A model generated the notes under the pieces. It made no database searches, was not told the origin of the DNA, and worked only from the letters and a program-made list of their open reading frames with translations. A stretch of 64,000 nt of DNA. Source: Bdellovibrionota bacterium. GTDB taxonomy: Bacteria; Bdellovibrionota_G; JALEGL01; DATDPG01. Where the stretch lies: NCBI GenBank assembly GCA_035292885.1, contig DATDPG010000019.1, forward strand, positions 59,570 to 123,569, given 5' to 3'. Positions 501 to 52,660 of the stretch are shown piece by piece. Positions within the stretch are counted from its first letter, which is position 1. Each line of letters starts with the position of its first letter. The translations under genes were made by a program, and so were the position numbers.

Positions 501-1849
501 CATAAGCTGAACTTCACCTGCGTGTAGGCAAAGTAGGCCAGATCAAGGCCGATCACATGATCCATATAGGCTCCGGGGAAGAAGAGGCCGCCCAGAGCTT
601 CGAGATGAACATGATCGTTCACTTTCAGCGCCACGAGGAGATCGAGCTCTTCGCCCGCGTGAAGCCCGGTCTCGGTAGGGGGCGAGGCCTGACCGGCCAG
701 GGGCAATTCCGTCGCAATCGAGTAAAGCACGTCGTTCTGATCCACACGCCAAAACGTATGGAGATCCGATGTGAACGTCCATGCGGCGGTTGGTTTCCAA
801 GAGAGGCGAAAGACGCCGGATTGAACGTTTTGTCTTCCGAGAATATCCATGTACCCGAGCCATCGATGTGCGGTCGGGAAAAGTTGATGGAAGCGGGTGA
901 ACGTCGACGTCGACGAGTCGTCTCCGGAGGCGCGATTGTATTCCAAACCGACACGAAGCCCTTCGCGCACGGCGAACGTATAGCCGGTCTCAAGGTCCAA
1001 CATATACGCCCGCATGTCCTCGCCGCGGTGTTCGCCCACCTGGAACGCTCCTTCAAAGCGGCCGTCGACCAGGCCTACAACAAATTTTGTCCGCGCTCCC
1101 AGCGTGGCGAAGTTAAATGTGGTGGGGGAGCCTGCACGATCGTCACGGAGCCAGAGGGTGTAGAAATCCAGAGCCTTCATCGGCTCGGGAAGCCCGATGC
1201 CGGCGTACGCACCCGCGAAGTCCGAGCCGCCACCGATTCCCGAATCCGCAACATCGCTCTCTCCCAGTTTTGAATAAAATGCGTCGATCCAGTGAGCGTT
1301 CCGGTGAAAGCGAACCAGCGCCGCATCGAACGAGCGACCGACGTTCGAAAAGTCGACGTTTCCGATCACCACGGCATCGCCGTAGTTCATCTCTTGCCGG
1401 CCGACTTTAAGGAGGAGCTCGGGATTCATATCCCACTTCACGTAGGCTTGGTGAAGTGAGAGGTCCCGATCCTTTAAGGCGCCACTGGTCGACGTTCCGC
1501 CTGTGATCGTTCCGCCCCCGCCGATGCCGGCTTCCGTCTGTCCCCAAAAGCCTGAGAATTGCGGTTGGATGAATCCCTCAAGGGTGGCCATGGGGCGCAA
1601 CGTTACGTTCATTCGGATTCGCGATCCGATGAAACGTGATCCGTCATCGGTCGTGTTTGAAAAATCGGAATTCTCCCGGCCTTCATATCGAAAACGCGCT
1701 TCCCCGCCGAGTTCCCACTTGGGCGGTGCCGCGGGTTGCGGAGAAGGAGTGGGCGTCGGAGCCGCAACTTCCTCCAGTGGTTTCGTTTCTTGAGCGTGAA
1801 GACGTGCAGCGATGAACAGGAAAGCAACGAACACTGCGCTGTTGTTCAT
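500..1849 (-). CDS. Outer-membrane beta-barrel, alginate-export (AlgE-like) porin family
   Basis: Likely start is MNNSAVFVAFLFIAARLHAQE (signal peptide), in an ATGA overlap with the upstream CBS gene. Motifs WELGGEARFRYEGRENSDF and VGRQEMNYGDAVVIGNVDFSNVGRSFDA resemble the alginate-export family. Amphipathic strand pattern throughout. Confidence 0.65.
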   Translation of the reverse strand: MNNSAVFVAFLFIAARLHAQETKPLEEVAAPTPTPSPQPAAPPKWELGGEARFRYEGRENSDFSNTTDDGSRFIGSRIRMNVTLRPMATLEGFIQPQFSGFWGQTEAGIGGGGTITGGTSTSGALKDRDLSLHQAYVKWDMNPELLLKVGRQEMNYGDAVVIGNVDFSNVGRSFDAALVRFHRNAHWIDAFYSKLGESDVADSGIGGGSDFAGAYAGIGLPEPMKALDFYTLWLRDDRAGSPTTFNFATLGARTKFVVGLVDGRFEGAFQVGEHRGEDMRAYMLDLETGYTFAVREGLRVGLEYNRASGDDSSTSTFTRFHQLFPTAHRWLGYMDILGRQNVQSGVFRLSWKPTAAWTFTSDLHTFWRVDQNDVLYSIATELPLAGQASPPTETGLHAGEELDLLVALKVNDHVHLEALGGLFFPGAYMDHVIGLDLAYFAYTQVKFSL

Positions 1850-2259
1850 TCGACATCCCAAGACAACGTGAGGAAATCGGCTTCCGTGACAATCCCGACC
1901 AAGCGTTTTTCGTGATTGATGACCGGCAGACAGCCGACTTTGGTGTCGAGCATCAAAGCGGCCACTTCACGCAGATCGGTCTCCGGTGTCGTGGTCAACA
2001 CTTTCTTCCGCATGATCTCTTTCACGATGACATGCGCAAAAATTTCCTCTTGCCGGTTCTTTGGAAGACGGGCCAAACTGGAAACGGCGGCTTTTAGAAG
2101 GTCCCGATGCGTGAGCATTCCGACGACGTGTCTGGACTGATCCACGACCGGAACATGGCGGATCCGCTGCCAGCGCATGAGGTCTTCGGCCAGATCGAGC
2201 TTGTCGTCCGGATGGACGAAGAAAACTTCGGAAGTCATGATGTCTTTGACTTTCTTCAT
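1846..2259 (-). CDS. CBS-pair domain protein
   Basis: 137 aa with two CBS repeats: VKDIMTSEVFFVHPDD...HVPVVDQSRHVVGMLTHRDLL and VKEIMRKKVLTTTPETDL...GCLPVINHEKRLVGIVTEADF. Confidence 0.85.
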   Translation of the reverse strand: MKKVKDIMTSEVFFVHPDDKLDLAEDLMRWQRIRHVPVVDQSRHVVGMLTHRDLLKAAVSSLARLPKNRQEEIFAHVIVKEIMRKKVLTTTPETDLREVAALMLDTKVGCLPVINHEKRLVGIVTEADFLTLSWDVE

Positions 2260-2356
2260 ACGAGTTCCCCGGTATCATGATGTCTCGAGGGTCGGTGCGA
2301 AAGTATGACTTGGATCATGTTGAGAAGAGTGAATCGGACCGCGGAGACACAGGCGA

Positions 2357-3553
2357 ATGAAGCCCATACCCATTACTGAGACCCACGGGACACCGGCTTC
2401 AGAGCACGCCATTGATCCGTACCGCGTCTTTTTCCCATTGGGCGTGGTGGCCGGCCTGGTCGGAGTCGGAATCTGGCCCCTTTATGCGGTCGGGTGGATT
2501 TCGACGATTCCATCGTCCATCCACGTGGAGCTTCAGCTGCAGGGCTTCCTATTCGCGTTCGTGCTGGGTTTCTTGATGACCGCGCTTCCGAGATTTTCGC
2601 TCACGTGGCACGCGACGTGGCCGGAGCTCGCCTGGTTTTCCGGCCTGTTCTTGATCGGAAATGTGGCCACCGCGTTTGGATATTTTCCCATCGGCCGAGC
2701 GGCATATCTGATCAATATGATTTCGCTGGCGATCTACGCCATTCGCCGTTTTCGGAAACGGAAATCGGATCCGCCTCCTGAATTTGTATTTGTAGGCGCG
2801 GCTCTTTTGATCGGTTTGTTCGCCGCGACTCTTCGCGTGGCGGGACTGTTCGGCTTCATGGAGTCCGGCGCCGAAGTTTTCGGGCGCAGATTGATGTCCG
2901 AAGGCATGATGTTGATGCTCGTCCTGGGAATCGGAGGCAAGCTCGCTCCGATGTTTTTCGGTTTCGACGCCACCTCTCCGCTCATTTCGAAGATGGGGGA
3001 GGGCGTCCGTTTTACGCGGAAACATCTTGCCTATCTTGGGATCGCGCTGGTTCTTCTTTTTTCTTTTGTCGCGGAATACGCGGTCTCCGAAAAGATCGGC
3101 CTCTGGCTCCGGGCGATCGCGGCGACACTGATTTTCTTGGGAACCATGAAGCTCCATCGCCGGACAAAAACCAAAGGGGTCCTGGTGGGAGTGCTGAAAT
3201 TTTCGTCCTGGGCGGTCTGCTTGTCGCTCTGGGGTTCCGCCATTCATCCGCGATATCGCGTGGAGGTCTTGCACGTCATGTTTATCGGCGGATTTGGAAT
3301 GATGATTTTGGCGATCGCCACGCGCGTGATCCTGTCCCACGGAAATTATCCTCTGGATCTAGAGCGACGATCGAAGTCTTTGTTCTTCGCCGCGTTTCTT
3401 CTGTTCGGCGCGCTGATTTGTCGTGCGATCGCGCCGCTATTTGTGGACGCGTATTTCCCCCTCCTCGGATTGGCCGGAACCTTCTGGCTTTTCGGCCTCC
3501 TCCTTTGGGGCGCACTCTTTTCGACCCGCACGATCGTCGTTCGGAAAAAATAA
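2357..3553 (+). CDS. nnrS: NnrS-family polytopic membrane protein (haem/copper, NO-stress associated)
   Basis: 398 aa and hydrophobic throughout (about 12 TM). The segment IHVELQLQGFLFAFVLGFLMTALPRF resembles the conserved NnrS N-terminal His...TAxP motif (from memory). Confidence 0.6.
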   Translation: MKPIPITETHGTPASEHAIDPYRVFFPLGVVAGLVGVGIWPLYAVGWISTIPSSIHVELQLQGFLFAFVLGFLMTALPRFSLTWHATWPELAWFSGLFLIGNVATAFGYFPIGRAAYLINMISLAIYAIRRFRKRKSDPPPEFVFVGAALLIGLFAATLRVAGLFGFMESGAEVFGRRLMSEGMMLMLVLGIGGKLAPMFFGFDATSPLISKMGEGVRFTRKHLAYLGIALVLLFSFVAEYAVSEKIGLWLRAIAATLIFLGTMKLHRRTKTKGVLVGVLKFSSWAVCLSLWGSAIHPRYRVEVLHVMFIGGFGMMILAIATRVILSHGNYPLDLERRSKSLFFAAFLLFGALICRAIAPLFVDAYFPLLGLAGTFWLFGLLLWGALFSTRTIVVRKK

Positions 3554-3555
3554 AA

Positions 3556-3583
3556 GGGAGGAAGAGGTTTCCCTCTCCCTCCC
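3556..3583. terminator. Imperfect GC-rich hairpin between convergent genes
   Basis: gggaggaagagg-ttt-ccctctccctccc lies directly after the nnrS stop, between convergent nnrS and hsp20. Pairing is imperfect. Confidence 0.4.
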
Positions 3584-3605
3584 TTCGGAGCATCAGTCAG
3601 TCAAG

Positions 3606-4115
3606 TTACTCAGCGGTTTTCAGATGGATGGTCTTCCGCTCAGTTTTGGCCGCGTCAGTCTTGGGGAGAAGAACCGACAAAACTCCTTTCTTAAATACGG
3701 CTTCCGCTTTATCGGCTTTCACCTCACAGGGAAGCGGAATCGAACGATAGAAAGATCCATAGGCTCTTTCAGCCCAGTAATAATCTTTCCGTTTCTCCTC
3801 GACCTCGGATTTCTTCTCGCCTTTGATGGTCAGCGTTTCGTTGGTGAGAGAAATCTCGATGTCCTTCTCGTCCACTCCCGGAAGTTCAGCCAACACCTGG
3901 ATATCCTTTTCGGTATCCTTGACGTCGATCTTCGGCGTGTAAGCCTCCACGCTCTCCGTCATGTAGCGGAATTGAGTTGGCATGAAGTCGCGATATAACT
4001 CGTCGAACATGCGGCTCATCAGGCGCGGCATAGCGAAGAACGGAGACTCTTCACCGAATCTCTTTCGAGGCGCTTGCGACTCTCGAAGAATCGGGATGAC
4101 ATTGGGTAGTGCCAT
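3606..4115 (-). CDS. Hsp20/alpha-crystallin small heat-shock protein
   Basis: Alpha-crystallin domain: DVKDTEKDIQVLAELPGVDEKDIEISLTNETLTIKGEK...YGSFYRSIPLP...AVFKKGVLSVLLPK. Confidence 0.9.
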   Translation of the reverse strand: MALPNVIPILRESQAPRKRFGEESPFFAMPRLMSRMFDELYRDFMPTQFRYMTESVEAYTPKIDVKDTEKDIQVLAELPGVDEKDIEISLTNETLTIKGEKKSEVEEKRKDYYWAERAYGSFYRSIPLPCEVKADKAEAVFKKGVLSVLLPKTDAAKTERKTIHLKTAE

Positions 4116-4392
4116 TCAAGTCTCCTTTCTTTTCTTTGGTTGACGTTTGACAGCCCGTTACAACCCGCAAACTTTTTCTACGTCCGAAAAGAGAAAATTC
4201 ACTGACATGTGTCATGGTTTTTGATAAATATTAACATCAAATATGTGCCGTAATTTCAACGACGGCGGGCCGAATCGCAGGTAGCTGCACGAATCGCCAC
4301 GTCCTCCGTCCCTAGAACCGAAAAACCGTGAGACAAATCAGTTTTGTTTCTGGCGGGATGCGCAGAATGACTTCAATTACAAGGGAGGTCGT

Positions 4393-4863
4393 ATGTCGAC
4401 GTATCGAGCTCGGGATATAATGAAGCGCGACGTCATGACCGTGCCGGAAGATATGACCGTTCGCGAACTCGCCACTTTTCTGATCGAAAACCAAATCAGC
4501 GGCGCCCCCGTGACCAATAAGAGGGGGAGGATCGTCGGCGTCGTATCGATGCGCGATATCGTTGGCGTGGACGTCGACCGGCCCGACTCGGTGTCCGGCT
4601 CGCGCAACCGCCCGGAATTTTACGACATGTCATGGGACAACATGAATTTGATCGACGAGGTTCCGCAGATGCACATTGAGCGGCAGGGCATGCTGGTCGG
4701 AGACGTCATGAATTCCGCGGTTTACAAGGTTCACCCCGACGCTCCGGTTCGAGACATCGCACAGACGATGCTCCAGGCGAAGATTCATCGGGTGATGGTC
4801 ATGAACGGCGGAGACCGTCTAGAGGGTATCGTCACGACGATGGATCTCCTACCTCTGATCTAG
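4393..4863 (+). CDS. CBS-pair domain protein
   Basis: ARDIMKRDVMTVPEDMTVRELATFLIENQISGAPVTNKRGRIVGVVSMRDIV plus a second CBS repeat VGDVMNSAVYKVHPD...HRVMVMNGGDRLEGIVTTMDLL. RBS AAGGGAGG lies upstream. Confidence 0.85.
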   Translation: MSTYRARDIMKRDVMTVPEDMTVRELATFLIENQISGAPVTNKRGRIVGVVSMRDIVGVDVDRPDSVSGSRNRPEFYDMSWDNMNLIDEVPQMHIERQGMLVGDVMNSAVYKVHPDAPVRDIAQTMLQAKIHRVMVMNGGDRLEGIVTTMDLLPLI

Positions 4864-4873
4864 TTGATCACGC

Positions 4874-4912
4874 AAAAATAGCCTTGGGCTCCTGCCACCC
4901 AAGGCTATTTTT
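4874..4912. terminator. Bidirectional rho-independent terminator
   Basis: Perfect 15-bp stem aaaaatagccttggg / cccaaggctattttt with a 9-nt loop and A/T tracts on both sides. It sits between convergent genes. Confidence 0.8.
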
Positions 4913-4953
4913 GTGTCAGCTTAGCCCGACTAGTTCCCCCTTGTATTACCGGA

Positions 4954-5436
4954 CTAGGCCGCTTCTTTTTCGGCGTTGTGGACCTGGAACTTATGCCACC
5001 GGACCGTGAGCACCGGGCACAGGGCGTTTCGCACCACCCTTTCGGCTACGCTGCCCATCACAAAGCGGTCGATTCCCGTTCGTCCGTGCGTTGACATCAC
5101 GATCCAGTCGGCTCCGGAGTCGTCCGCTTCGTCACAAATCATCTGCGGAACCGAACGATTCGTGGATACGACCACCGACGTCACCTTTACGGGCGCCTTT
5201 AACTCCTGAATGTACTTGTCCATTTCTTTCCGCGCCGTATCGTTTGTCTTTTGTTCCAGATTTCGTCCCGGCCAGAGCGAATCCTCGCCGTAGATCACCA
5301 AACCGCTCAAATCCCGGACGTGAACCAGGCGCAATTCGGCGTTAAAGGCTTTACATAACTCCATCGCTTGTTCGGCCGCTTCTTTTGAAGCATCGGAAAA
5401 ATCAATGGGTACCAAAATTTTCTGGATCATGGTCAT
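4954..5436 (-). CDS. Universal stress protein (UspA family)
   Basis: KILVPIDFSDASKEAAEQA...LRLVHV...WIVMSTHGRTGIDRFVMGSVAERVV is the classic Usp ATP-binding signature. Confidence 0.9.
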   Translation of the reverse strand: MTMIQKILVPIDFSDASKEAAEQAMELCKAFNAELRLVHVRDLSGLVIYGEDSLWPGRNLEQKTNDTARKEMDKYIQELKAPVKVTSVVVSTNRSVPQMICDEADDSGADWIVMSTHGRTGIDRFVMGSVAERVVRNALCPVLTVRWHKFQVHNAEKEAA

Positions 5437-5875
5437 GGGAGGCTCCTTTCTGTAGATTAAGTTTCTTTCCGAGCGCCGCCTGAACGAGGGCTACAAAATC
5501 GACCTCAGTGACGATTCCCACGAGCTTCCCGTTCTCAATTACCGGAAGGCAACCCACCTTCTCCTTAGCGATCAGTTCCGCGGCCATCTCGAGCGGCATA
5601 TCCGGACTTGCGGTTACGACATGGCTTCGCATCAGATCACGAACAGGAATGTGCGCGTTTAGATTCTTTTGATGATCGGGATGGGGATTCGCAAAACAAG
5701 AAATGGCCCCCCGCAATAGGTCCCGGTGAGTGACCAGGCCGACCAACCGACGATTGTCGTCGATGACGGGAATGTGGCGGATTCGATGCCATTTCATAAT
5801 CTCCTCCGCCATGTCGAGCGTTTGATTCTCGAGCAGTGTAAAGAGATTCGTGGTCATGATGTCGGAAACTTGCAT
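5402..5875 (-). CDS. CBS-pair domain protein
   Basis: VSDIMTTNLFTLLENQTL...HIPVIDDNRRLVGLVTHRDLL and VRDLMRSHVVTASPD...GCLPVIENGKLVGIVTEVDF. Its end overlaps the usp start. Confidence 0.85.
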   Translation of the reverse strand: MQVSDIMTTNLFTLLENQTLDMAEEIMKWHRIRHIPVIDDNRRLVGLVTHRDLLRGAISCFANPHPDHQKNLNAHIPVRDLMRSHVVTASPDMPLEMAAELIAKEKVGCLPVIENGKLVGIVTEVDFVALVQAALGKKLNLQKGASHDHDPENFGTH

Positions 5876-5983
5876 CGTATACCCAGAGATAGAATCCCGC
5901 TTCGGGCTCGGTATACTATGATCCCCATCATAGACGGATGACTGCAGCGCGTTAGAAAGAGAAATTCCTATAGGAGGTGTGAA

Positions 5984-6427
5984 ATGAGATGCAAAGATCT
6001 CATGAACGGCAACGTTCGTTTCTGCCGAGAATTAGACCCCATTCATCTCTGCGCAAAGCTGATGCGCGATCATAATATCGGTTTTGTCCCGGTTCTGGAT
6101 GTGAACGATCGGGCGGTTGGAGTGGTCACCGATCGGGACATTACGTGCCGCGTTGTGGCCGTACAAAAATCGTTCGCACTTCCGGTGCGCGAGATCATGA
6201 CGCGACATCTGTTATCGTGCGGCGCGGAAGACGAACTCGGGTACGCCGAGGCCAAGATGAGCCAGCAAAGAAAGTCGAGAATCCTCGTCATGAACGAGGA
6301 AGGCAAAGCGGTGGGCGTGATCAGTCTGTCCGATATCGCCCGTGCGGAGCCTCATCGGCGTTCCGGGCGCGTGCTGGAAGAAGTCACGCGCCGAGAGGGC
6401 AGTTCGCGCCCGGTCGTCGTGATCTGA
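5984..6427 (+). CDS. CBS-pair domain protein
   Basis: CKDLMNGNVRFCRELDP...GFVPVLDVNDRAVGVVTDRDI and VREIMTRHLLSCGAED...ILVMNEEGKAVGVISLSDI. RBS AGGAGG lies upstream. Confidence 0.85.
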   Translation: MRCKDLMNGNVRFCRELDPIHLCAKLMRDHNIGFVPVLDVNDRAVGVVTDRDITCRVVAVQKSFALPVREIMTRHLLSCGAEDELGYAEAKMSQQRKSRILVMNEEGKAVGVISLSDIARAEPHRRSGRVLEEVTRREGSSRPVVVI

Positions 6428-6489: not shown

Positions 6490-8175
6490 TCAAGAAGGAC
6501 CCGAAAACTGGCTGACGAGCGTTTCTAGTTGCTCTGGTTTCATCTCGAGATGCAAGCTGACGCTATGTTTCCGCTGGTCGACGGGCTGGCAGACGACAAC
6601 TTTTCCTTTCAATAGAATCCGCTGAAACGTGTGAGGAAGGTGGATTCGAACGAAAACCGTTTCACCGGTCTCTACGAAACGTTCCGACTCTATGAACATT
6701 CCGCCATGTTTCATGTTCCTTTCGAATTCCACCCGAAGCGCGTCGGCGGTCATAAAAAAAACATCCAGGACAACAAGATCAGGTTCATTTCGTTCCTGTT
6801 GTTCGGACGGGTCGTGGTCTTGAAGGTGGTTTTGGATGTAATGATTCAGAGCGGCAATGCCGGATTGTGGAATCTCCGTGAACCGGAGCGCGGCGAATGT
6901 TTTTTTGTCTTTCGAGACCTCATAAAGAAGCCGGCCGACGCCACGAACCTGGGCGTATCCGGCGCCCAGGTGAACGACGACGGGATATTCCTGCCCACGC
7001 CGGGGGACCAACCCTTCCCACTTTACGAGCATTCCGCCGCAACTTAGCTCGCGAACTTCGAATTGAACCTTTGCCCGCTGGACCGTGTCGATGAGGTCCG
7101 TTTGGATCGCCGCCGTTTCCGTGGAAATGCGCGGATGCTTTCGGCGGTCGGCTTGGGCGAGCAAAGATTCCAGATTGGAAGAAGCGTTGGCGGCAGCCCT
7201 ATCGGCTTTGTCCGAAGTTCGAAACTCATTCAATTTAGCCGTCCATTCTGCATCCAGGACTCGTAAGCGATTTGTAAAACGCTCATGAAAATAACCGGTT
7301 ACTTCCGTAAGTTCCGTCAACGGCTGCTGGGAAAAGTGAACGTGAAATAAATGCCGCTCAAACTCGTCCACGGTTTTGAAACGCATCTCCAGTTCTTTGC
7401 CCAATGCACGATTGAAAAAGATCCGAAGAACGTTTTCATCATTTGAGCTTCGAACCAGATCTTTGCAGGGAAGGCGAGGGATCGAACCCTCCTCGATCGC
7501 GCGCGTTAGGTCAATTTTGCTGGTCCCTTCGAAGGGGCGTTGACCGAAGAAGAGATAGAACGCCAAGACGCCAAGCGAGTAGATGTCCGTTCCGGTGCTG
7601 GGTGCCGCACCTTTGAAAACCTCAGGGGGAAGAAAAGCGAGCTTTCCAAAGTGTCGGTGTGTGGCATCGGCAAAGCTTTCCTGCCCGGCGCTTCCAAAAT
7701 CGACGATGCGGATCGTGCCGTCCTGAGCGATCATCACGTTGTCCGACGATAAATCGCCATGGAACAGAACGGAATTCGAGTTCTCAAAGATGGACGTTCG
7801 GTGAAGATAACGGAGGGCCTGGCAACAATCTCGGATCAAATAAAGGGAAAGCGGCAGGGGCACTTTTTGTCCCGCCTGCTGATAATCGTCGATCAGTTGC
7901 TGAACGCTTCCGCCAAGCAAAAGCTCCATGACCAGGAAGTACGTGTCGTTTATCCGTCCTTGATCGAGAATGGGAAGGATGTTGGGATGGCGCAATTTCG
8001 AACCGATCCGAACTTCACGAATAAAGTCCGCCACGGCCTGAGGTTCATGAACTCGTTCGGCTTTCAGGCATTTAACCGCATACGGCTGTTGATCCTTTAC
8101 TCCAAGGTAAACATTGGAGAGCCCCCCTTCGCCGATCTTGTGGATTAGATGGTATCTGCCGAGACGAGGGGGCAT
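6490..8175 (-). CDS. Hanks-type Ser/Thr protein kinase fused to two C-terminal PilZ-like domains
   Basis: Kinase motifs: IGEGGLSNVY (G-loop), YAVKCLK, HGDLSSDNVMI (atypical catalytic loop), VDFGSAG, LPPEVF. C-terminal region: RRKHPR...ELSCGGMLV (PilZ RxxxR / DxSxxG-like), then a second PilZ-like beta-barrel segment HGGMFIESERFVETGETVFVRIHLP. Confidence 0.8.
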   Translation of the reverse strand: MPPRLGRYHLIHKIGEGGLSNVYLGVKDQQPYAVKCLKAERVHEPQAVADFIREVRIGSKLRHPNILPILDQGRINDTYFLVMELLLGGSVQQLIDDYQQAGQKVPLPLSLYLIRDCCQALRYLHRTSIFENSNSVLFHGDLSSDNVMIAQDGTIRIVDFGSAGQESFADATHRHFGKLAFLPPEVFKGAAPSTGTDIYSLGVLAFYLFFGQRPFEGTSKIDLTRAIEEGSIPRLPCKDLVRSSNDENVLRIFFNRALGKELEMRFKTVDEFERHLFHVHFSQQPLTELTEVTGYFHERFTNRLRVLDAEWTAKLNEFRTSDKADRAAANASSNLESLLAQADRRKHPRISTETAAIQTDLIDTVQRAKVQFEVRELSCGGMLVKWEGLVPRRGQEYPVVVHLGAGYAQVRGVGRLLYEVSKDKKTFAALRFTEIPQSGIAALNHYIQNHLQDHDPSEQQERNEPDLVVLDVFFMTADALRVEFERNMKHGGMFIESERFVETGETVFVRIHLPHTFQRILLKGKVVVCQPVDQRKHSVSLHLEMKPEQLETLVSQFSGPS

Positions 8176-8220
8176 CTTCGATGCATTATACCCCCGCTTA
8201 AGACGGAGAGGATATCGTAC

Positions 8221-13910: not shown

Positions 13911-15126
13911 AACGAGCCGAGACTCCCACGCGAACATCCGCCGTTTGATCGATGTTCGAATTGATTTCGCCGTTTACGCCGAGCTCAAGTCCCCATCGCC
14001 ATGCGTACAAGCATCCCAGGCCGGTGTGAAGAGCGTAATCTTCCGACCCGGTCACCTTGTCATATCGAGCGACGGCGAAAGATCCTCTGGCCCGCCATCC
14101 GAGCGAGATCTGTTTTTCGAGCGAGCTCGTGAATCCTCCGGATCGTCCGCCGTAACTATCCTGAAAGAATGCTCGGACGGAGGCGATCCAGGGGCGAACC
14201 CCCTCGATCCATTGAAACCCGCCATCCACCATATGGCCGTCCTCGGATCGGGTGGTCAGAACTTCATAACGTTGAAAACTGTACCCCGCCTGAACCGAAA
14301 GTTTCGAAGAGACTCGGTACGCCGCTGCACCTCTCCCTTGCCATTCCTCCCCCTGGGAAAAGAGCGTAAAAATCCGGTCCTGCCATTCGAAATTATCGCG
14401 GGATTCGTTGTATCGGGCGAACTCTCCGGAGAGGAGCAAGGCATCCATGGGGAAGAGTTCAAGTCCTGCACGACCTGATCCGAAAAGGGTTTTGTCCGCC
14501 AGGTAATCGATCGAACCATATAATAGAGGCGTCCAAAAAAACGGGAGCGCTTGTTTGGCTCCGGCCACGATCCATTGCCGGTGGACTGTCTCCAGATCGT
14601 CTTCATACCGATACCCCATCGTCAGTGTGGTCGAGGAGAACGGTTGCAGCGTCAGGTCGGCGCCGATCAACGTGGATTCTTCGTCGAAATCGGAAATTTC
14701 AGGATGCCTTCGCAAGCCGCCGAAGAGACGTCCCGATATTCGTCTCCGGGTACCCAGAGAAACTTGCGCGCCGTCGAGAAGGATCAGCGACTCGAACGGG
14801 TTCGCCAGAAATCTCCCCGCCTGGGCGTTCATTCCCCATTCGGGCCGATTCCACGAAACACTCGCTTGGTAAAGATCGGCCTTGTTGTCCGGATTTATCA
14901 GATTGGACAAAATCTGGCCGTCCATTGAAAATTCCCCTTGCAGCGGGGAAATTGGGGCGCTCAGGCGAAGGCGATTCACCCACGGGAGTTCCCGGTCTCC
15001 GATCAGATTTTCCCGGATCTGATTATACGATCTGAGTTCGACGGTCGGACCGGCCCAAGAGAGTGTTGGAGCAAGAATGACCATCCATCCCAGCGTCCGA
15101 TACACCCCTCGAAAAAGAAATGGCAT
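13897..15126 (-). CDS. Outer-membrane beta-barrel (porin component of a porin-cytochrome module)
   Basis: Signal peptide MPFLFRGVYRTLGWMVILAPTLSWA, alternating amphipathic strands, and a C-terminal ...VSARYVYF (aromatic terminus). Paralogous by eye to 49972..51312 (AGRFLANPFESLILLDG vs AGRQFRQEFESLYFDG). Confidence 0.65.
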   Translation of the reverse strand: MPFLFRGVYRTLGWMVILAPTLSWAGPTVELRSYNQIRENLIGDRELPWVNRLRLSAPISPLQGEFSMDGQILSNLINPDNKADLYQASVSWNRPEWGMNAQAGRFLANPFESLILLDGAQVSLGTRRRISGRLFGGLRRHPEISDFDEESTLIGADLTLQPFSSTTLTMGYRYEDDLETVHRQWIVAGAKQALPFFWTPLLYGSIDYLADKTLFGSGRAGLELFPMDALLLSGEFARYNESRDNFEWQDRIFTLFSQGEEWQGRGAAAYRVSSKLSVQAGYSFQRYEVLTTRSEDGHMVDGGFQWIEGVRPWIASVRAFFQDSYGGRSGGFTSSLEKQISLGWRARGSFAVARYDKVTGSEDYALHTGLGCLYAWRWGLELGVNGEINSNIDQTADVRVGVSARYVYF

Positions 15127-15203
15127 ATGGATATTTTAGTGTTCGTCTCCCGAAGAATAAGAACCATGATATGCATCATGCCGGGATAATTCCCGTCAAG
15201 GGC

Positions 15204-16301
15204 ATGATCAAAGAAATGCGCGCTCGGCATCCATTGGGGTTGTGGAGTCTTATTTTCACGTTGCTGAGTGTTTCCCCGGCGCTGGCGGAAAAGGAGAAAC
15301 CTAAGAGCGGCTGTATCGCCGAGGGATGCCATGCCGTTCTCATGAACGCGAAAGTCGTGCATTCGGCGATCGAGGATGGCGCATGCGACGGATGCCATAC
15401 ACCTTCGGAGGGGAGCAGTCCCGACCAGGCGGGTGCCAAACATAAATTCGAGAAGATCGACGTCGGCCAGGCCTGCGGAGATTGCCATGAGGCCGCGAAA
15501 GACAAATCGATTCACAAGCCGTACGGCGAAGCGAAGTGCACCGCTTGCCACAATCCGCACTCGTCCGACCAGCCGGCTTTGTTGCGGGAAGAGTCGCCGG
15601 CACTTTGCCAGCCATGCCACGAAAAGATCGCCGCAATTTCCTCGCGAGGTTCGAGCGATCATCTGGTGGCCGACGGAAAACTCGCCTGCCTGAGCTGTCA
15701 CGAAGGTCACCTGTCGAAAATACCGAAACTTCTCCGAAAATCGCCGAAAGAACTCTGCTTGGGATGTCACAACAAGGAAATCTCGACACCTCAGGGAACT
15801 CTGGTCGATATCGCCGGTAAGCTCACCGACAAAAAAGCGACCGTCCATGACCCCGTCGCCGATGGGTGCGTCTCTTGCCATAATCCGCATGGGAGCGAAC
15901 TCCCGCGGCTCCTCGTCCGTTCGTATCCGACGGCCTGGTACGGCAATCCATCGATTTCTGCGTACGGCCTCTGTTTTGAGTGCCATGAAGCGGCCGGTTT
16001 TGAAGCCAAGGAGACCGAGGAGGGGACGGCGTTTCGAAACGGCAAGAAAAATCTCCATGCGGTCCACATCTTGAACGATCCGCTGGGCCGCTCCTGTTCC
16101 GCCTGCCACGACGTGCATGCGGCGGCGGGAGAGCACCTCATTCCGTCGCAAGTTCCCTTTTTCGGTTTCTTGGTTCCCACGAATTTCAAGACGGCGGAGA
16201 ACGGCGGCAGCTGTTTCCCGGGTTGCCATGAAGCGAGAGCCTACGATCGCTTGGAGGCTGTGCCTCTATCTAAGCCGGACTCGGGACACCCGAAACCTTA
16301 A
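15204..16301 (+). CDS. Periplasmic multihaem cytochrome c (9 canonical + 2 non-canonical motifs)
   Basis: Start taken at MIKEMRARHPLGLWSLIFTLLSVSPALA. Canonical motifs: CDGCH, CGDCH, CTACH, CQPCH, CLSCH, CLGCH, CVSCH, CFECH, CSACH. Non-canonical: CIAEGCH (CX4CH) and CFPGCH (CX3CH). Repeated CHNPH signature. Confidence 0.85.
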   Translation: MIKEMRARHPLGLWSLIFTLLSVSPALAEKEKPKSGCIAEGCHAVLMNAKVVHSAIEDGACDGCHTPSEGSSPDQAGAKHKFEKIDVGQACGDCHEAAKDKSIHKPYGEAKCTACHNPHSSDQPALLREESPALCQPCHEKIAAISSRGSSDHLVADGKLACLSCHEGHLSKIPKLLRKSPKELCLGCHNKEISTPQGTLVDIAGKLTDKKATVHDPVADGCVSCHNPHGSELPRLLVRSYPTAWYGNPSISAYGLCFECHEAAGFEAKETEEGTAFRNGKKNLHAVHILNDPLGRSCSACHDVHAAAGEHLIPSQVPFFGFLVPTNFKTAENGGSCFPGCHEARAYDRLEAVPLSKPDSGHPKP

Positions 16302-26427: not shown

Positions 26428-28017
26428 GTGAAGCGTTCGGCCCAGGTCGTTCAACCGGTACCGCCTTCTGGGGAGGTGGGGCGGGAGTATCCGGGCTTAT
26501 ACGAAGAACTCGACCAGCTGCGACGAAAGCGGTTGACGCTGGTGGCTACCGTCGGCGCGTTGATGTGCCTCACGATTCAAGTGATCAACTTCTGGACCCA
26601 AGCCGGCCCGCGGATCTATCCGCGGATGGAACCGGAGATCCTCGATCGGGCCACACTGCTCTTTCACGCCGCTTCGTTTCTTTCAGCCGCTTTCCTGTTT
26701 CGAATTCGTTCGCTTCAGACACAGACGGTTCTCGCTCTCGATCTCCTCTTGTTTGGGTTGAACATTCTCGCTCGATCCCTTGCGACGATCTGCATCGTTG
26801 AAACGGGCGATCATTTTCCGGGAATCGAGGGTATTTCCCTTGCGGTGATTTTGCATGGGGTATTCGTTCCGACCGGTATCACGATACCGATTGTGCTCGG
26901 CGCCTTGGCCACGATCTCCTTCCCGTTGGCCCAAATCGCGGGTTTACACTGGTTCGACTCGATCGCCGCACATTGGCAACAAGTAAGTGGGGCGGAGCCG
27001 TTTGCGTTCTTGCTTACTTTGAACACGCTTACGATCGCCTTTTTCGCCTTTCTCGGCGTTCTGGCCAACCGCGTTTTTTACGGCCTCGCCCGGGACGCCT
27101 ACCGCGCCAAACAGCTTGGGAATTATCTCATTGAAGGGGAACTCGGTTCGGGCGGGATGGGAAAAATTTTGATCGGACGGCATCGTCTGATGCGCCGGCC
27201 GACGGCGATCAAAGTTTTGCGGGCCGAGTTTTTGGGCGGGCCGGAAGCCTTGGCTCGTTTCGAGCGCGAAGTCGAACTGGCGTCAAAGCTTACGCATCCC
27301 AACACAATCGCCATATATGATTTCGGACGTTCGGCCGACGGAACCTTTTACTACGCCATGGAAATGCTCAAGGGGTTAAACCTCCAGGAACTCGTGGATC
27401 AATACGGTCCTCTTCCCTCGCCGCGGGCCGTGCATATCGTAAAGCAAATTTGCGGATCGCTGGCGGAAGCGCATTCGATGGGTGTCGTCCATCGCGACAT
27501 TAAACCGAGCAATATTTTTCTCACGCAGCGCGGAGGTCTGGACGACTTCGTCAAAGTCATCGATTTCGGTTTGGCCAAACAGGTCGCCACGCCCGACGTG
27601 CCGGGTGAGGGCCTTACGGAGGCCGGGCGTCTGTTCGGCACGCCGCATTTTATGGCGCCGGAGACGGCATACGGAGCCGATCGAGCGAGTCCTCAGTCCG
27701 ATATCTACAGCCTGGGCGCGGTCGCTTATTGGCTTGTAACCGGAAAGCGGCTCTTCGACGGCACTCCGGCGGAAATATTGGCCGCGCATGTGAAGACGGT
27801 ACCGAAGCCGCCTTCAAAAGTTTCAGAGGTTCAGATTCCGGCCTCACTCGAACAGACGATACTTACCTGCCTAAAGAAAAAACCGGAGGAGCGACACAAA
27901 TCGGCGATGGAAATCTTCACCGCGCTGGACGGCATCGAAGGGACATCACGTTGGTCAAACGCACAAGCGAGAGAGTGGTGGGAGATCCACCATCCGGGTC
28001 TGTTCACGCATCTTTGA
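26428..28017 (+). CDS. Membrane Ser/Thr protein kinase (N-terminal ~6-TM domain + Hanks kinase)
   Basis: LGSGGMGKILIG, AIKVLR, HRDIKPSNIFL, DFGLAK, GTPHFMAPE. Paralog of 30270..31850. Its 3' end overlaps the convergent gene by 14 nt. Confidence 0.85.
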   Translation: MKRSAQVVQPVPPSGEVGREYPGLYEELDQLRRKRLTLVATVGALMCLTIQVINFWTQAGPRIYPRMEPEILDRATLLFHAASFLSAAFLFRIRSLQTQTVLALDLLLFGLNILARSLATICIVETGDHFPGIEGISLAVILHGVFVPTGITIPIVLGALATISFPLAQIAGLHWFDSIAAHWQQVSGAEPFAFLLTLNTLTIAFFAFLGVLANRVFYGLARDAYRAKQLGNYLIEGELGSGGMGKILIGRHRLMRRPTAIKVLRAEFLGGPEALARFEREVELASKLTHPNTIAIYDFGRSADGTFYYAMEMLKGLNLQELVDQYGPLPSPRAVHIVKQICGSLAEAHSMGVVHRDIKPSNIFLTQRGGLDDFVKVIDFGLAKQVATPDVPGEGLTEAGRLFGTPHFMAPETAYGADRASPQSDIYSLGAVAYWLVTGKRLFDGTPAEILAAHVKTVPKPPSKVSEVQIPASLEQTILTCLKKKPEERHKSAMEIFTALDGIEGTSRWSNAQAREWWEIHHPGLFTHL

Positions 28018-30256
28018 GTAATTCTTTGAGAGCAGATCGTTCTTCGTCCGAGGCAAAGAGCGTGGCTCCGGTCTTTAGAAGGTCGGAAACGACATGGTCG
28101 ATCGGTCGAACGGTTTTTCGCTTTTGTTCATCGCTCAGATCGCCGATAAACGGCCACAGTCCCTTTTTCAGATCGGCGGGAAGGACCTGCTCCAGATATT
28201 CGAGGGCGAAGCTCCTGAGCTTTTCGTTCTCGAGAAGAATTCCATAATAGGCCGCCCGAACCGCCTCGGGCTCCAGCACCAGCGCCAACATACGGAAGGT
28301 ATGCTCGATCCCGAGCTCCCCTCGGCGTCCCACCCGTTCGGACACGAGATCATCCTCTTCCGGCTCGGTTTCATCCAAAAGCCGGTGCAGTTCCCAGACC
28401 GGCTTTCCACGGCTGACTTCCCCTTTCAAGGCTTCCCACACACCCGTCTTCCAATTTGTCTCCGACACCGGAAGGCCATGCTTTCGGCGGTTGGCTAAAG
28501 CGATCGCCGAACGATATCGAACTTCGAACCGTGAGTCTCCCAGAGCCACGACAAGCGCCTCATCCGCTTTGGCGATCGGAACTTTCGCCAGGACACGGGG
28601 GATTCTCCTGCGGATGACGAAATCGTTGTTTTCGTCCCGGAGAATCCCCGCCAACACGTGGAATCCGCCAGCCCCGACTCGAACCAAAGCGTGCGTGACA
28701 AGATCCTGAAGATCTTTTTGTGCCAGGAGACGGACGAGAGTCTCCGCATGGCTTTCATTCCAGTCCGTTTTCTCCATCAGCGCTTTTCGAACCTCGGTGG
28801 GATTTTTGGATTGAATCCGTTCCAATGTCGTGCTCTTCGTTGGCGTGACCGGCGCTTGAGAGACTTTGGCTGCACCCGAGGGTGGAAGGAGACCTCGGGC
28901 CTCCAAGTCGGCGGCTATACCCAGCCGGCTGAAGGTCGCCGTCAAAAGCCCTCTCCCCTCAAATCGGGCATCCGCCAGCATTCGTTCCGGTTCCGCCTTA
29001 TCCCGCAGCTGTTGAACGAGCGTCTCAAAATACTTCCTTCCGATTTGCCGGCTCAGCCCCAAGAAACCGAGGGCTGAGACTCCCACAAGAATCGAAAGGT
29101 ATTTGGAGGGAAGGCCTCCCAAGGTGATGCATAGAAAAATGAGTCCCGATCCGGCCCCTTCGGCAGCCGCGTCGACCAAAGAATCAATGAAGGTCTTCGT
29201 TTTTCGCCGGACCTGCGTGGGAAGAGGGATGTACACAACTTCGACGGCCGACCGAAAAATGGATTTCCGGATCGAATTGTCCGCGCCGCGCGCCAACGTG
29301 GCCGCTATTAATCCGGGCAAGAGAAAAAGCCCGGTGGAGCCGGCCAGCAAAACCATCGGCAGAACTGCGAACGTGGTCCCGACACCCGTCCTCGCCAAAA
29401 GCGGCGCTGTAACAACGACCTGAAGAAGAAGAGAAATAAGGCCGGTCCAACCGTAGAAGCTCCCGAAAAACCCGGCCAGCTGTTCCCTCGACTGCAAGGA
29501 AGCTCGAACTTGTTCCTTGAATTGATAGTCGAGGAGCGTGCTCGCTAACGTTGCCGCGAAAACGATTGAAGCCAACGTCCGCAGATGCTCGTTCCGCCAT
29601 ACGAGATGCAAGCTCTCACGCGTACTGGTCCGTTCGCCCTCCTTTTCCTTAGGGTCCATGTCCTTTCGCGCCGGAAGCAGGACTTGCAGAAGCAAAAAGA
29701 GGCCGACAAGCCCAATTAACGCCGGGATCATTTGAACGAGGCCGATCTGTTTGATCAGCGGCTTGATGGACGTACCCAGAGTGAGGGCGCCGATGGTCCC
29801 TCCGGCGCTGATTAACGCAAACAAACGCTTGGCGCGGCGAATCGGAAAAAATTCCGCCGTGACCACCCAGAAGCCGGAGGTCAAGACGAATGCGCCCAGC
29901 GCCGTCCAGAGGTAAAAGACAACCACGGCGGAAGCATTTTGCGTCGCAACCGGCCAAAGTGCGAGAAGGCCCATCGCGAATAGAAACACCGCGTAACGAA
30001 GGACACGTTGAGCTCCGTACCGGGCCATAAGTTTGGAAAACGTCCCAATCGTTGGCAACGCCAGAACCACGACGGCGGTCGTGATATACGGGAGCGTCTT
30101 GACGTCGAATGTGCCAAGGTAGAGGGCCTCACGAAGGGAGCGCCCGAGAATCATCATTCCGACGACGAAAAACGCGCCGAGAAAACAGAGAGCAACCGTA
30201 GGGAACTCGCCCGGCCTTATGTCAAGCCAACTTGTGAGCCGCTGGGCGGGTTTCAT
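28004..30256 (-). CDS. MFS/TLC-like (nucleotide-transporter-like) permease fused to a C-terminal HEAT-repeat domain
   Basis: N-terminal region of about 420 aa with about 12 TM helices (IRPGEFPTVALCFLGAFFVV...LREALYLGTFDVKTLPYI). C-terminal soluble region has HEAT-like repeats (IPRVLAKVPIAKADEALVVALGDSRFEVRYRSAIALA). Confidence 0.55.
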   Translation of the reverse strand: MKPAQRLTSWLDIRPGEFPTVALCFLGAFFVVGMMILGRSLREALYLGTFDVKTLPYITTAVVVLALPTIGTFSKLMARYGAQRVLRYAVFLFAMGLLALWPVATQNASAVVVFYLWTALGAFVLTSGFWVVTAEFFPIRRAKRLFALISAGGTIGALTLGTSIKPLIKQIGLVQMIPALIGLVGLFLLLQVLLPARKDMDPKEKEGERTSTRESLHLVWRNEHLRTLASIVFAATLASTLLDYQFKEQVRASLQSREQLAGFFGSFYGWTGLISLLLQVVVTAPLLARTGVGTTFAVLPMVLLAGSTGLFLLPGLIAATLARGADNSIRKSIFRSAVEVVYIPLPTQVRRKTKTFIDSLVDAAAEGAGSGLIFLCITLGGLPSKYLSILVGVSALGFLGLSRQIGRKYFETLVQQLRDKAEPERMLADARFEGRGLLTATFSRLGIAADLEARGLLPPSGAAKVSQAPVTPTKSTTLERIQSKNPTEVRKALMEKTDWNESHAETLVRLLAQKDLQDLVTHALVRVGAGGFHVLAGILRDENNDFVIRRRIPRVLAKVPIAKADEALVVALGDSRFEVRYRSAIALANRRKHGLPVSETNWKTGVWEALKGEVSRGKPVWELHRLLDETEPEEDDLVSERVGRRGELGIEHTFRMLALVLEPEAVRAAYYGILLENEKLRSFALEYLEQVLPADLKKGLWPFIGDLSDEQKRKTVRPIDHVVSDLLKTGATLFASDEERSALKELLKDA

Positions 30257-39551: not shown

Positions 39552-40793
39552 TTACTTGCGCGGCGGAGGAAGCGAACGGATTTTGAGAGCCAGAGCGATG
39601 ACCAACAACGTGAGGAATATTGTGCTGATTCCGAGGCCGACTCGGCGGGTTTTGTTTTCGCGGAGAGCGGCTTTCCCCAAAGCGATGGCTTGATCCACAG
39701 CTTTTCGTCCCTCCGTGATCTTCGCCTCCACCCCCGGCATGGAAAAGGAGTGAATCTCGGTTCGTGCCTGAATCAACGCCTGCCGGGCATTTTGCATGCT
39801 GTCCTCGGCTTCGGTGACGTCCATTCCCTTGTCCCTCGCTTCTTCGATAATCTTCGAAGCTTCGGCCGAATAATTCTTCAAAGAGCCGATCATCTTGGAG
39901 AACGCCATGGCCACGGCGGCGCCTTTATCCCCCTCTTTGTGGCACTTGGCGCAGATCGCGCCTTGCTGCGTCCCGATCCGGTCATCTGAGATGTGAACGA
40001 TCAGATGATTGCCGTGGCAGGAAATGCATTCGCCGTAGGGATCCTTCTGCAGGGCTTTCGCCATGGGACTCTTGAGAAACAGCTCGGCGTTGTGGACGTG
40101 GCAGGAGCCGCAAATATGGGCGATGGATTTCAGTCCCGGCGGTGTGGCGCCGTGGTTGCCGTGACAATCGTTGCAGGCGGGAGCGCCCCGGACATCTCCT
40201 TTTTCAAGCAGAGCTTTCCCATGCACACTTTTCGCGTACTCGGCATAGACGGTCGTCGAGATCTTGTACGGCTTCATATATTCGGGGTCGGCGTGGCAAT
40301 GGGCGCACATCGTCGGCAGGTTCACCGCGTAAACCGGAGACTTCGCGTCGTTGACTTTCCGGATGTTGTGCACGCTGTGGCAGCTGACGCATTCGGCGAC
40401 TTTGGTGTCCCCCTGTTTCAGTTTCTTGCCGTGCTGGCTGGTCAGGTAGAGCTCATACTGATCGACCCGAAGCATCGGGTTGTATTTCTTCATGAAGACC
40501 GGGTTGCTGTGGCATTTCGCGCAAAGTTTCGGAATGTCCGCCCTCTTCGGCGCCCCTTTGAAGCCTTTCTTCGGGTCCATTGAGATATCTTGGTCGTCCG
40601 AGGTCGGATCTCCGCCGTGGCATTCGTTGCACCCGATTCCCGCCGTGGCGTGCACGTCATCCTTCCAGCGGGTGGAGGGCTCATCTTCCATCGACTGATG
40701 GCAGATAAGGCATTGGCCGCCGGGCAGCGCAGCAGCTTCTTCGGCGTATGCCGACGAAAGTACGTTCAGCAGAATGAATAAAATCCAACTCAT
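39552..40793 (-). CDS. Nonahaem cytochrome c with C-terminal TM anchor (partner of the Rieske/cyt b complex)
   Basis: Start MSWILFILLNVLSSAYA in an ATGA overlap with the cyt b stop. CLICH, CNECH, CAKCH, CVSCH, CAHCH, CNDCH, CGSCH, CISCH, CAKCH. C-terminal GLGISTIFLTLLVIALAL. Confidence 0.85.
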   Translation of the reverse strand: MSWILFILLNVLSSAYAEEAAALPGGQCLICHQSMEDEPSTRWKDDVHATAGIGCNECHGGDPTSDDQDISMDPKKGFKGAPKRADIPKLCAKCHSNPVFMKKYNPMLRVDQYELYLTSQHGKKLKQGDTKVAECVSCHSVHNIRKVNDAKSPVYAVNLPTMCAHCHADPEYMKPYKISTTVYAEYAKSVHGKALLEKGDVRGAPACNDCHGNHGATPPGLKSIAHICGSCHVHNAELFLKSPMAKALQKDPYGECISCHGNHLIVHISDDRIGTQQGAICAKCHKEGDKGAAVAMAFSKMIGSLKNYSAEASKIIEEARDKGMDVTEAEDSMQNARQALIQARTEIHSFSMPGVEAKITEGRKAVDQAIALGKAALRENKTRRVGLGISTIFLTLLVIALALKIRSLPPPRK

Positions 40794-49163: not shown

Positions 49164-49189
49164 GTTTTCTCTCCCTCTCATGAAAGTTC

Positions 49190-51973: not shown

Positions 51974-52660
51974 ATGGGCCAGAACGAACGACGAATCCAC
52001 ACACGGCTTCAGCTGAGCGAGGAGGTCCGGGCCTCCACTCCCAAAGGCTTTCTGACAGGCTACCTCCGAGATGTCTCCAAAGGGGGCGCGGGAGTCGTCT
52101 TCGAAGAGAGCGTCGGGGATGTCGGGGAAACGATCGAGATTTTTCTCCCCTTCCCCGGCGGCGTGGAGATCGCCGTGATGGCGGAGATTGTCCGAATCCA
52201 AGAAACCCAGGGCGGTCTCTTGCACGGCCTCTGCTTCAGCCTCGTTGAACCTTCGATGCAGGAAAAACTTCTGACGCTCGTCGAGACCCTCCTCGCCGGA
52301 TCGGGGGGAAAGCGACGGGAGCACCCGCGCGTCTCCAAGAGAATTCCGATCCGCTACGGGAACCAGGCGGAGTTTCAAGCCGGCCTCCAAACGATCTCCA
52401 TGGGTGGGTTGTCGATGATGATCGACACTCCCGTGGTTCTCTTCCAAGAGGTCGAAGTCTCCATTCCGGACGTCAGCGGTCGCGAACTTCTCATCCTCCC
52501 CGCCCGGGTGATCTACCAGCACAACCTCGAGAAAAGTGGAAAGAAGCAGTATGAGGTCGGTCTTCAGTTCCGTGAACTGACGGGTCCGCAGAAGGCCTGC
52601 CTCGCCGAACTCCTCCGCTACGTGATGGATACACCGGCCGACGCCACAGGTTCCAAGTGA
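51974..52660 (+). CDS. Tandem PilZ-domain protein (c-di-GMP receptor-type)
   Basis: Start MGQNERRIHTR. Two RxxxR...D/NxSxxG pairs: RRIHTR...DVSKGG and RREHPR...TISMGG. Confidence 0.8.
   Translation: MGQNERRIHTRLQLSEEVRASTPKGFLTGYLRDVSKGGAGVVFEESVGDVGETIEIFLPFPGGVEIAVMAEIVRIQETQGGLLHGLCFSLVEPSMQEKLLTLVETLLAGSGGKRREHPRVSKRIPIRYGNQAEFQAGLQTISMGGLSMMIDTPVVLFQEVEVSIPDVSGRELLILPARVIYQHNLEKSGKKQYEVGLQFRELTGPQKACLAELLRYVMDTPADATGSK

Follow-up and report, generated by a model that had tools for sequence, protein, structure and literature searches.

We use a combination of profile searches, family alignments and predicted structures to study a gene for an unusual protein kinase in a 64-kb window of DNA (the whole stretch of 64,000 nucleotides that was analysed, part of a contig from a Bdellovibrionota bacterium). 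The 561-residue product of this gene is identical to a database protein (P0001, recorded as 'protein kinase [Bdellovibrionota bacterium]') and carries, from its N-terminus to its C-terminus, a Hanks-type kinase domain, a helical linker and two domains of PilZ type, which we call PilZ-1 and PilZ-2. The parts of the gene are collected in Table 1. No hydrophobic segment able to form a transmembrane helix is found in the 561-residue sequence, which argues that the protein is probably soluble and cytoplasmic. Two features of this architecture concern us here: a catalytic loop that departs from the usual HRDxK pattern, and a PilZ tandem that raises the question of whether a Hanks-type kinase could respond to the second messenger cyclic di-GMP (c-di-GMP).

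Table 1. Parts of the kinase-PilZ gene, in window positions; residue numbers refer to the 561-residue product.
Feature	Coordinates	Strand	Basis or remark
Whole gene, 561-residue kinase-PilZ-xPilZ protein, probably soluble	6490..8175	(-)	ATG start
Hanks-type kinase domain, residues 6-280	7336..8160	(-)	Pfam Pkinase, PDB sequence matches, Foldseek
Gly-rich loop GEGGLSNV	8110..8133	(-)	G15, G17, G18 conserved
β3 catalytic Lys K35 (AVK, within YAVKCLK)	8071..8073	(-)	invariant 20/20
8-residue insert (SIFENSNSVLF), then catalytic loop HGDLSSDN	7738..7794	(-)	conserved; non-RD, Ser for loop Lys
DFG, then family signature SAGQES, start of activation segment	7675..7701	(-)	D159, G161, Q165 invariant; S162 nearly
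P+1 loop GKLAFLPPE, K178 at the conserved Thr/Ser site of Ser/Thr kinases	7621..7647	(-)	K178 nearly invariant
Helical linker, residues 281-337, with W311	7165..7335	(-)	W311 invariant; long helix 298-321 in AlphaFold2 (AF2) model
(V)ESLLA motif with E336, from C-terminal edge of linker into PilZ-1	7156-7170	(-)	conserved; E336 nearly invariant
PilZ-1, residues 338-450, predicted as probable c-di-GMP-binding domain	6826..7164	(-)	motifs, fold, profile matches
RRKHPR of PilZ-1	7129-7146	(-)	R345, R349 invariant
ELSCGG of PilZ-1	7033-7050	(-)	G381 invariant, G380 nearly
PilZ-2, residues 467-556, degenerate xPilZ-type barrel without RxxxR	6508..6777	(-)	Pfam PilZ, TIGR02266, PDB profile matches
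NMKHGG of PilZ-2	6700-6717	(-)	

By profile and by predicted fold, the kinase domain is a PknB-like bacterial Hanks kinase. Pfam Pkinase (PF00069) matches residues 8-226 at E=1.5e-36 (126.6 bits against a cut-off of 31.7), the top PDB sequence matches are StkP, Stk1 and PknB, and the alignment to StkP and PknB extends as far as residues 272-286 and so takes in the P+1 loop and subdomains IX-XI. In Foldseek, the AF2 model (predicted local distance difference test, pLDDT, 81.8; predicted template-modelling score, pTM, 0.71) matches PknB, PknA and Stk1 with target-normalised TM scores of 0.79-0.86. The motifs named in a first-pass annotation of this DNA are all in place, namely the Gly-rich loop, K35, the αC Glu (E54), D159 of DFG and a PPE (residues 183-185) at the APE position. 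Nucleotides 7738..7761 (-) translate exactly to the catalytic loop HGDLSSDN that it had read there. Neither the HRD Arg nor the catalytic-loop Lys is indeed present in it: a phmmer search against the PDB pairs 'fhgdlssdn' with 'vHRDLKPQN' of StkP, which puts Gly140 at the RD Arg and Ser143 at the loop Lys. All Hanks subdomains are common to the window kinase and to PknB, PknA, Stk1 and StkP, its best matches in sequence and fold. Those four differ in being RD kinases with a loop Lys, a P+1 Thr/Ser and no insert before the loop, and in their activation by phosphorylation of the activation loop, their membrane anchors and their PASTA domains.

The first-pass annotation had likened this loop to those of RIO and Bud32 kinases. 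Kinases of these atypical families are not known to have an activation segment, P+1 loop or αG to αI subdomain. The window kinase differs from them in having an activation segment and the later subdomains, and what it shares with them is a local pattern of eight residues, HGDL[S/T]xxN. We carried out the family alignment and structure prediction that had been proposed as a check, and they return the PknB-like Hanks kinase described above, with RIO1 at 13 bits against a cut-off of 22 and the Bud32 models at 13-17 bits against cut-offs of 125-372. With these matches confined to residues 77-168 and below their cut-offs, and with the activation segment, P+1 loop and subdomains IX-XI all present, we reject membership of the RIO/Bud32 group.

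A related idea is that the enzyme phosphorylates a small molecule, as APH, choline-kinase or RIO-like enzymes do, and is not a protein kinase. It draws on local matches to APH, Fructosamin_kin, ABC1 and RIO1 over residues ~116-170, where APH, at 25.1 bits against a cut-off of 23.2, is the sole match of this kind to rise above its cut-off. All of these matches, including those to Bud32, are limited to residues 77-170 at most. The same weak APH and ABC1 matches are listed for many canonical HRDxK kinases, and the domain as a whole is of Hanks type, with its activation segment, P+1 loop, PPE, αF Asp and subdomain XI Arg. The APH match is confined to the surroundings of the catalytic loop in a domain of full Hanks extent, so APH membership is rejected, and we regard a small-molecule kinase as the least probable of the readings considered here. 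Only slightly less improbable is a role in phage defence, as a single-gene kinase of the kind known from PD-T4-6 or MADS6. The scores that suggest it are striking at first sight (PADLOC mad6, E=2.5e-53; PD-T4-6, E=1e-46; NCBIfam MADS6, E=1.2e-26), but the matched region is no more than the generic kinase domain (residues 4-284), and MADS6 reaches 93.5 bits where its cut-off is 460. There are no MADS or other defence genes next to the kinase in the nine loci examined, the gene keeps its synteny within a subclade, which fits vertical inheritance, and the local GC content is ordinary. On the score and the neighbours, we reject membership of a defence system.

How can a Hanks kinase do without its loop lysine? 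Among the kinases that we retrieved, an initial tabulation of loops reveals that each otherwise good kinase without the loop Lys reads 'GK' in place of 'GT' or 'GS' in its P+1 loop. Three traits are linked in these proteins: an 8-residue insert before the catalytic loop, replacement of the loop Lys by Ser, Thr or Ala, and replacement of the P+1 Thr by Lys or Arg (GK for GT). In a search from one of them, the Polyangiaceae-like protein P0050, we took the 120 top relatives out of 6,010 kinases at E <= 1e-10; 119 of them are parsable, and in 119 of 119 the loop reads H[RCL]Dx[ST]xxN and is accompanied by G[KR]. When P0050 is aligned to PknB, Ser falls under Lys, Lys falls under Thr, and an 8-residue gap opens. 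For a quantitative comparison, all kinase domains were aligned to one profile. A loop Ser, Thr or Ala is found together with a P+1 Lys or Arg in 147 sequences, and none of the 91 sequences that keep the loop Lys has a P+1 Lys or Arg. After single-linkage clustering at 50%, the combination of loop Ser/Thr/Ala and P+1 Lys/Arg makes up 9 clusters, loop Lys with P+1 Thr/Ser makes up 57, and Lys at both sites makes up none; another 15 clusters have lost the loop Lys and have no P+1 Lys. These counts come from a biased sample, gathered by likeness to the query, by likeness to one S+GK kinase and by the pattern HGD[LI]S. The insert is just as regular, with a single length throughout the 148 class members. 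In 24/24 members of the window kinase's own family, as in 124/124 other S+K kinases, exactly 13 residues separate the αE His from the catalytic His; canonical kinases have a median spacing of 5.

The window kinase, with its 13-residue spacing, S143 and K178, falls in this class (window 7621-7794, (-)), which is abundant in Myxococcota and whose other members in our data include P0036, P0038, P0050, P0061 and P0121-P0240. Many members from M. xanthus DK1622 and an alphaproteobacterial cluster with HRDLSPDN...AGKYNYVSPE can be found in a published compilation of prokaryotic kinase domains (PMC2877116 supplement). The myxobacterial HRD[VIL][ST]PxN kinases (M. xanthus gi|108761001 and gi|108756902; Polyangiaceae P0050 and its relatives) have the same insert, the same loop Ser/Thr and the same GK for GT. 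They differ from the window kinase, to whose kinase domain they are ~29-34% identical, in keeping the RD Arg in most cases (a few read HCD or HLD) and in having other C-terminal regions with no PilZ domain. The loss of the loop Lys is thus not unique to the window kinase's family, and in the sequences compared the change from Arg to Gly, which makes the kinase non-RD, is the only one specific to this Bdellovibrionota family.

In protein kinase A (PKA), Thr201 of the P+1 loop bridges Asp166 and Lys168. A review has the P+1 Ser/Thr touching the catalytic loop (PMC6213207). Taking this contact together with the covariation of loop-Lys loss and P+1 Lys, we infer that the P+1 loop has taken over the loop lysine, as K178, and that the active site would still be competent. 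The situation recalls the WNK kinases, in which the β3 lysine is relocated; in the class described here it would be the loop lysine that has moved, to the P+1 loop. No solved structure appears within the class, the best PDB match of P0050 being canonical PknB, and we found no published description of the class or of the Lys/Thr swap in the literature searched, which is not proof of absence. The first-pass annotation had also asked whether an HGD..S loop might prove common and fully active in a described Ser/Thr kinase subfamily. As to the first half, loss of the loop Lys is indeed common (119/119 in the search above), and HGDLSPxN is found in other Bdellovibrionales kinases; as to the second, no experimental proof of activity was found.

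Conservation within the family bears directly on catalytic competence. We collected 20 full-length relatives with the same architecture at 32-48% identity, and across these orthologues the invariant kinase positions include K35, E54, H139, G140, D141, N146, D159, G161, Q165, D197 and R265. The APE position reads PPE or PAD, position 143 is Ser or Ala in all family members, and four more full-length members keep an HGDxSPxN loop together with the P+1 GK. Since G140 occupies the RD Arg site in 20 of 20, the family is non-RD. The first-pass annotation had left room for a pseudokinase. Such a protein would be catalytically dead and would serve as a scaffold, its conformation being sensed by partner proteins whether or not c-di-GMP takes part. 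The missing HRD Arg and loop Lys, together with an activation loop that has no conserved phospho-acceptor, are what one would cite in its favour. A pseudokinase is usually recognised by the loss of at least one of the β3 Lys, the catalytic Asp and the DFG Asp. Here K35, D141 and D159 are all invariant, as are the αC Glu and the loop Asn, and the P+1 Lys that would compensate for the missing loop Lys co-varies with its loss. Every residue needed for phosphotransfer is thus under selection, which argues against a dead enzyme, and we consider a pseudokinase unlikely. On these alignments the kinase has an unusual active site that is probably catalytically competent.

Now we consider the C-terminal half. 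Pfam reports two stretches of PilZ in it, and in the AF2 models DSSP assigns six strands and a C-terminal helix to PilZ-1 and to PilZ-2 alike. Both barrels match solved PilZ domains, and the two PilZ domains claimed in the first-pass annotation hold up. The linker that leads to them (residues 281-337) has no Pfam match and contains W311 and E336, which are invariant and nearly invariant. PilZ-1 opens with the motif R-x-[H/Y]-[P/A]-R; its two arginines, R345 and R349, never vary, and the consensus RRxHPR is kept in 25/25 relatives. Further on it has the near-canonical [E/Q]-h-[S/G]-x-x-G. Its profile matches the PilZ domains of Alg44 and YcgR. In Foldseek, the C-terminal model matches c-di-GMP-bound YcgR, MotI, PlzA, Alg44 and MapZ at probability 1.0. 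The window also encodes a canonical, stand-alone di-PilZ protein, at 51974..52660 (+) as previously noted (Pfam PilZ, E=4e-26, in two stretches); hhalign aligns both of its barrels to those of the kinase at 94.8% probability, placing RRKHPR on RRIHTR and ELSCGG on DVSKGG. In fold and in RxxxR, PilZ-1 is like the binder type represented by the receptors YcgR, MotI, PlzA and Alg44, and c-di-GMP binding by PilZ-1 is plausible on these likenesses.

PilZ-2 is different in kind. It had been read as a second PilZ-like barrel, and we find it to be of a degenerate type that has lost both RxxxR and the Ser motif: there is no Arg pair before the barrel, and the later motif reads N-h-x-H-G-G, or NIxH[KR]R in a distant subclade. 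On its own PilZ-2 scores 32.2 bits against Pfam PilZ and E=1.6e-6 against TIGR02266, and its best PDB profile matches are Xanthomonas type IV fimbriae assembly protein PilZ (4f48, 3dsg and 3cnr). Those structures belong to the divergent, non-binding xPilZ group, which acts through protein contacts (10.1101/814665). Like the non-binding Xanthomonas adaptor XAC1133/XC1028, PilZ-2 is by its motifs and matches an xPilZ domain (PA2960/XAC1133 type), with no ligand binding predicted. YcgR-like proteins have the order xPilZ-PilZ (10.1101/814665), and the window kinase has the reverse, PilZ-xPilZ. The orientation of the two barrels also differs from that in known two-domain PilZ receptors, with two-domain superpositions at a root-mean-square deviation of 15-18 Å.

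Putting the two halves together, we estimate a probability of roughly 0.45 that the protein is a cytoplasmic, competent non-RD Hanks-type Ser/Thr kinase that its PilZ tandem would make responsive to c-di-GMP. In the mechanism that we propose, K178 would supply the positive charge at the γ-phosphate and the catalytic Asp in place of the loop Lys and so give an active enzyme. Without the RD Arg, activity would be independent of activation-loop phosphorylation and would be set allosterically. The conserved helical linker joins the kinase C-lobe to the RxxxR segment, which c-di-GMP, once bound, could clamp onto the PilZ-1 barrel; this clamping would reposition the PilZ tandem with respect to the kinase and switch either its activity or its access to substrate. 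PilZ-2 may act as a protein-protein adaptor that docks a substrate or the kinase itself.

It is important to set against this reading the results that weigh on the other side. Where receptor PilZ domains have Asp or Asn in the second motif, PilZ-1 has Glu or Gln in all members, which is the case in ~8% of the RxxxR-bearing PilZ domains in our sample. The Ser of that motif is kept in 19/25 members and replaced by Gly in 6/25, and PilZ-1 taken alone scores 17.1 bits against Pfam PilZ, below the gathering cut-off of 22.5. The single PilZ domain of M. xanthus Pkn1, a known kinase-PilZ fusion, is without c-di-GMP motifs (PMC8844925), and PlpA, which has the motifs, is reported not to bind c-di-GMP (PMC8316039). 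A motif scan of the 64-kb window finds no GGDEF or HD-GYP. The confidence of the AF2 model is low over residues 163-176, in the activation segment. Finally, the swap of lysine for threonine is not obligatory: PilZ-less Bdellovibrionales kinases of ~330-400 residues have HGDLSPxN, keep the P+1 Thr and have no insert, and one member of the family itself, P0005, reads HFATLSYVPPE, with AT for GK, while keeping HGDLSPDN. Either P0005 has reverted naturally or it stands as an exception to the swap. The PilZ-less kinases (found at L017, L019, L020, L021, L023, L024, L026, L027 and L030) are a second, separate kind of loop-Lys-less kinase in the phylum.

The results on PilZ-1, together with the precedents of Pkn1 and PlpA and the likeness of PilZ-2 to adaptor PilZ domains, can also be read as signs of an active kinase under no c-di-GMP control, in which the PilZ tandem is a ligand-independent module for interaction or localisation, as is predicted for Pkn1. 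What this has difficulty explaining is the strictness of RxxxR, which persists, with H/Y-P/A between the arginines, across 25 members whose identity falls as low as 32%. In these proteins RxxxR is entirely gone from PilZ-2, showing that the motif decays when it is not needed, and no argument for a ligand still being bound by PilZ-1 is better than this contrast. Of the rival readings, a purely ligand-independent tandem is the strongest, though we find it less probable than the reading proposed above.

A broader claim joins the two subjects, namely that the triad of insert, Ser/Thr/Ala and Lys marks a large, apparently undescribed class of bacterial kinases with a relocated lysine, and that the Bdellovibrionota family is its non-RD member and is gated directly by c-di-GMP through PilZ-1. 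From the alignments and motifs at hand, we put this forward as a tentative possibility.

The kinase-PilZ-xPilZ family is real and rare, and it is known only from uncultured organisms. Searching 1.84 billion representative proteins with a profile of the C-terminal half gives only 12 matches at E<=1e-30: 9 kinase fusions (529-580 residues), 2 short fragments (313 and 140 residues) and a 3,318-residue repeat protein that matches piecemeal. Matches weaker than this threshold are generic PilZ. In GTDB contigs, with one genome per species, full-length members occur in seven metagenome-assembled genomes labelled Bdellovibrionota or Bdellovibrionales and in two with vaguer labels. The JGI label for relatives is 'serine/threonine protein kinase/Tfp pilus assembly protein PilZ'.

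Fusions of kinase and PilZ domains are already known as a type. Pkn1 (MXAN_1467), a Ser/Thr-kinase-PilZ fusion that is important for development in M. xanthus (PMC8316039), is the nearest analogue known and the only such fusion to have been studied. It is likewise soluble and has an N-terminal Hanks kinase and a C-terminal PilZ fold (PMC8316039, 10.1101/814665), a likeness drawn from architecture alone. Its host comes from a neighbouring lineage, and this too was once counted among the 'Deltaproteobacteria'. Where Pkn1 has one motif-less PilZ, the window family has a PilZ with intact RxxxR and a second, degenerate one; the family is distinct in this pairing of intact-RxxxR PilZ and xPilZ, in its non-RD loop and in its membership of the insert/Ser/Lys class. 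Two metagenomic proteins, P0045 and P0058, have another domain order, with an N-terminal PilZ, a cyclic-nucleotide (cNMP)-binding domain and a Hanks kinase with an HQD loop.

It is known that c-di-GMP acts through PilZ domains on motors, glycosyltransferases, transcription factors and histidine kinases. We found no demonstrated case of a c-di-GMP-regulated Hanks kinase in the literature searched, which again is not proof of absence. If direct gating through PilZ-1 is true, the window protein would become the first demonstrated c-di-GMP effector among Hanks-type kinases, and it may link this second messenger to protein phosphorylation. The triad has a wider reach. Judging from all 119 parsable top matches, drawn from 6,010 kinases at E <= 1e-10, it points to an active site built unlike that of PknB in several hundred or more bacterial kinases, most of them from Myxococcota. 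Such a class bears on the prediction of which 'odd-looking' kinases really are pseudokinases.

The surroundings of the gene say little about its function. The four CBS-pair neighbours mentioned in the first-pass annotation are present (1846-2259, 4393-4863, 5402-5875 and 5984-6427), as are Usp (4954-5436) and Hsp20 (3606-4115); an NnrS gene is also nearby, and a NAD-malic enzyme gene lies immediately upstream of the kinase on the same strand. This context is not conserved: synteny is limited to the closely related P0015-P0020 subclade, and the kinase is the only gene common to all nine loci. We thus reject both a conserved gene neighbourhood and a functional link to the CBS, Usp and Hsp20 genes. 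By the criterion of conservation, therefore, that cluster and the malic enzyme are not functional partners, and no substrate is readable from gene order. Taken by itself, the CBS/Usp/Hsp20/NnrS cluster (window 1846-6427) looks stress- or redox-related. At 8185-8190 (-), a perfect TATAAT precedes the kinase ATG by 9 nt; neither an obvious Shine-Dalgarno sequence nor a good -35 element accompanies it. A scan for promoters and terminators called no promoter, and terminator-like sites were at or below shuffle expectation. Either the leader of the kinase transcript would be very short, or transcription may run on from the malic enzyme gene, which ends 45 nt upstream.

Several further genes in the window deserve mention. 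Both domains of the stand-alone di-PilZ protein (51974-52660) keep RxxxR (RRIHTR and RREHPR) and xxSxxG (DVSKGG and TISMGG). A loose EAL pattern occurs in four open reading frames (ORFs) of the window: two Hanks kinases, one ORF without a Pfam family and one ORF at 57652-58734. Besides the kinase-PilZ gene, the window has two Hanks kinases, which are canonical, with HRDIKPxN and GT, and apparently membrane-anchored. They are paralogous to each other (26563-28017, (+), and 30270-31850, (-)) and flank a 750-residue TLC/MFS ATP/ADP-transporter-like gene at 28004-30256 (-). A 408-residue ORF with no Pfam family at E<=0.001 (15003-16229, (-)) overlaps a 393-residue ORF on the opposite strand (15120-16301). 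Extracellular or periplasmic electron transfer is suggested by three large multihaem c-type cytochromes, encoded at 39552-40901, 43237-45168 and 45720-49205, all (-); one carries a fused cytochrome b561-like membrane domain.

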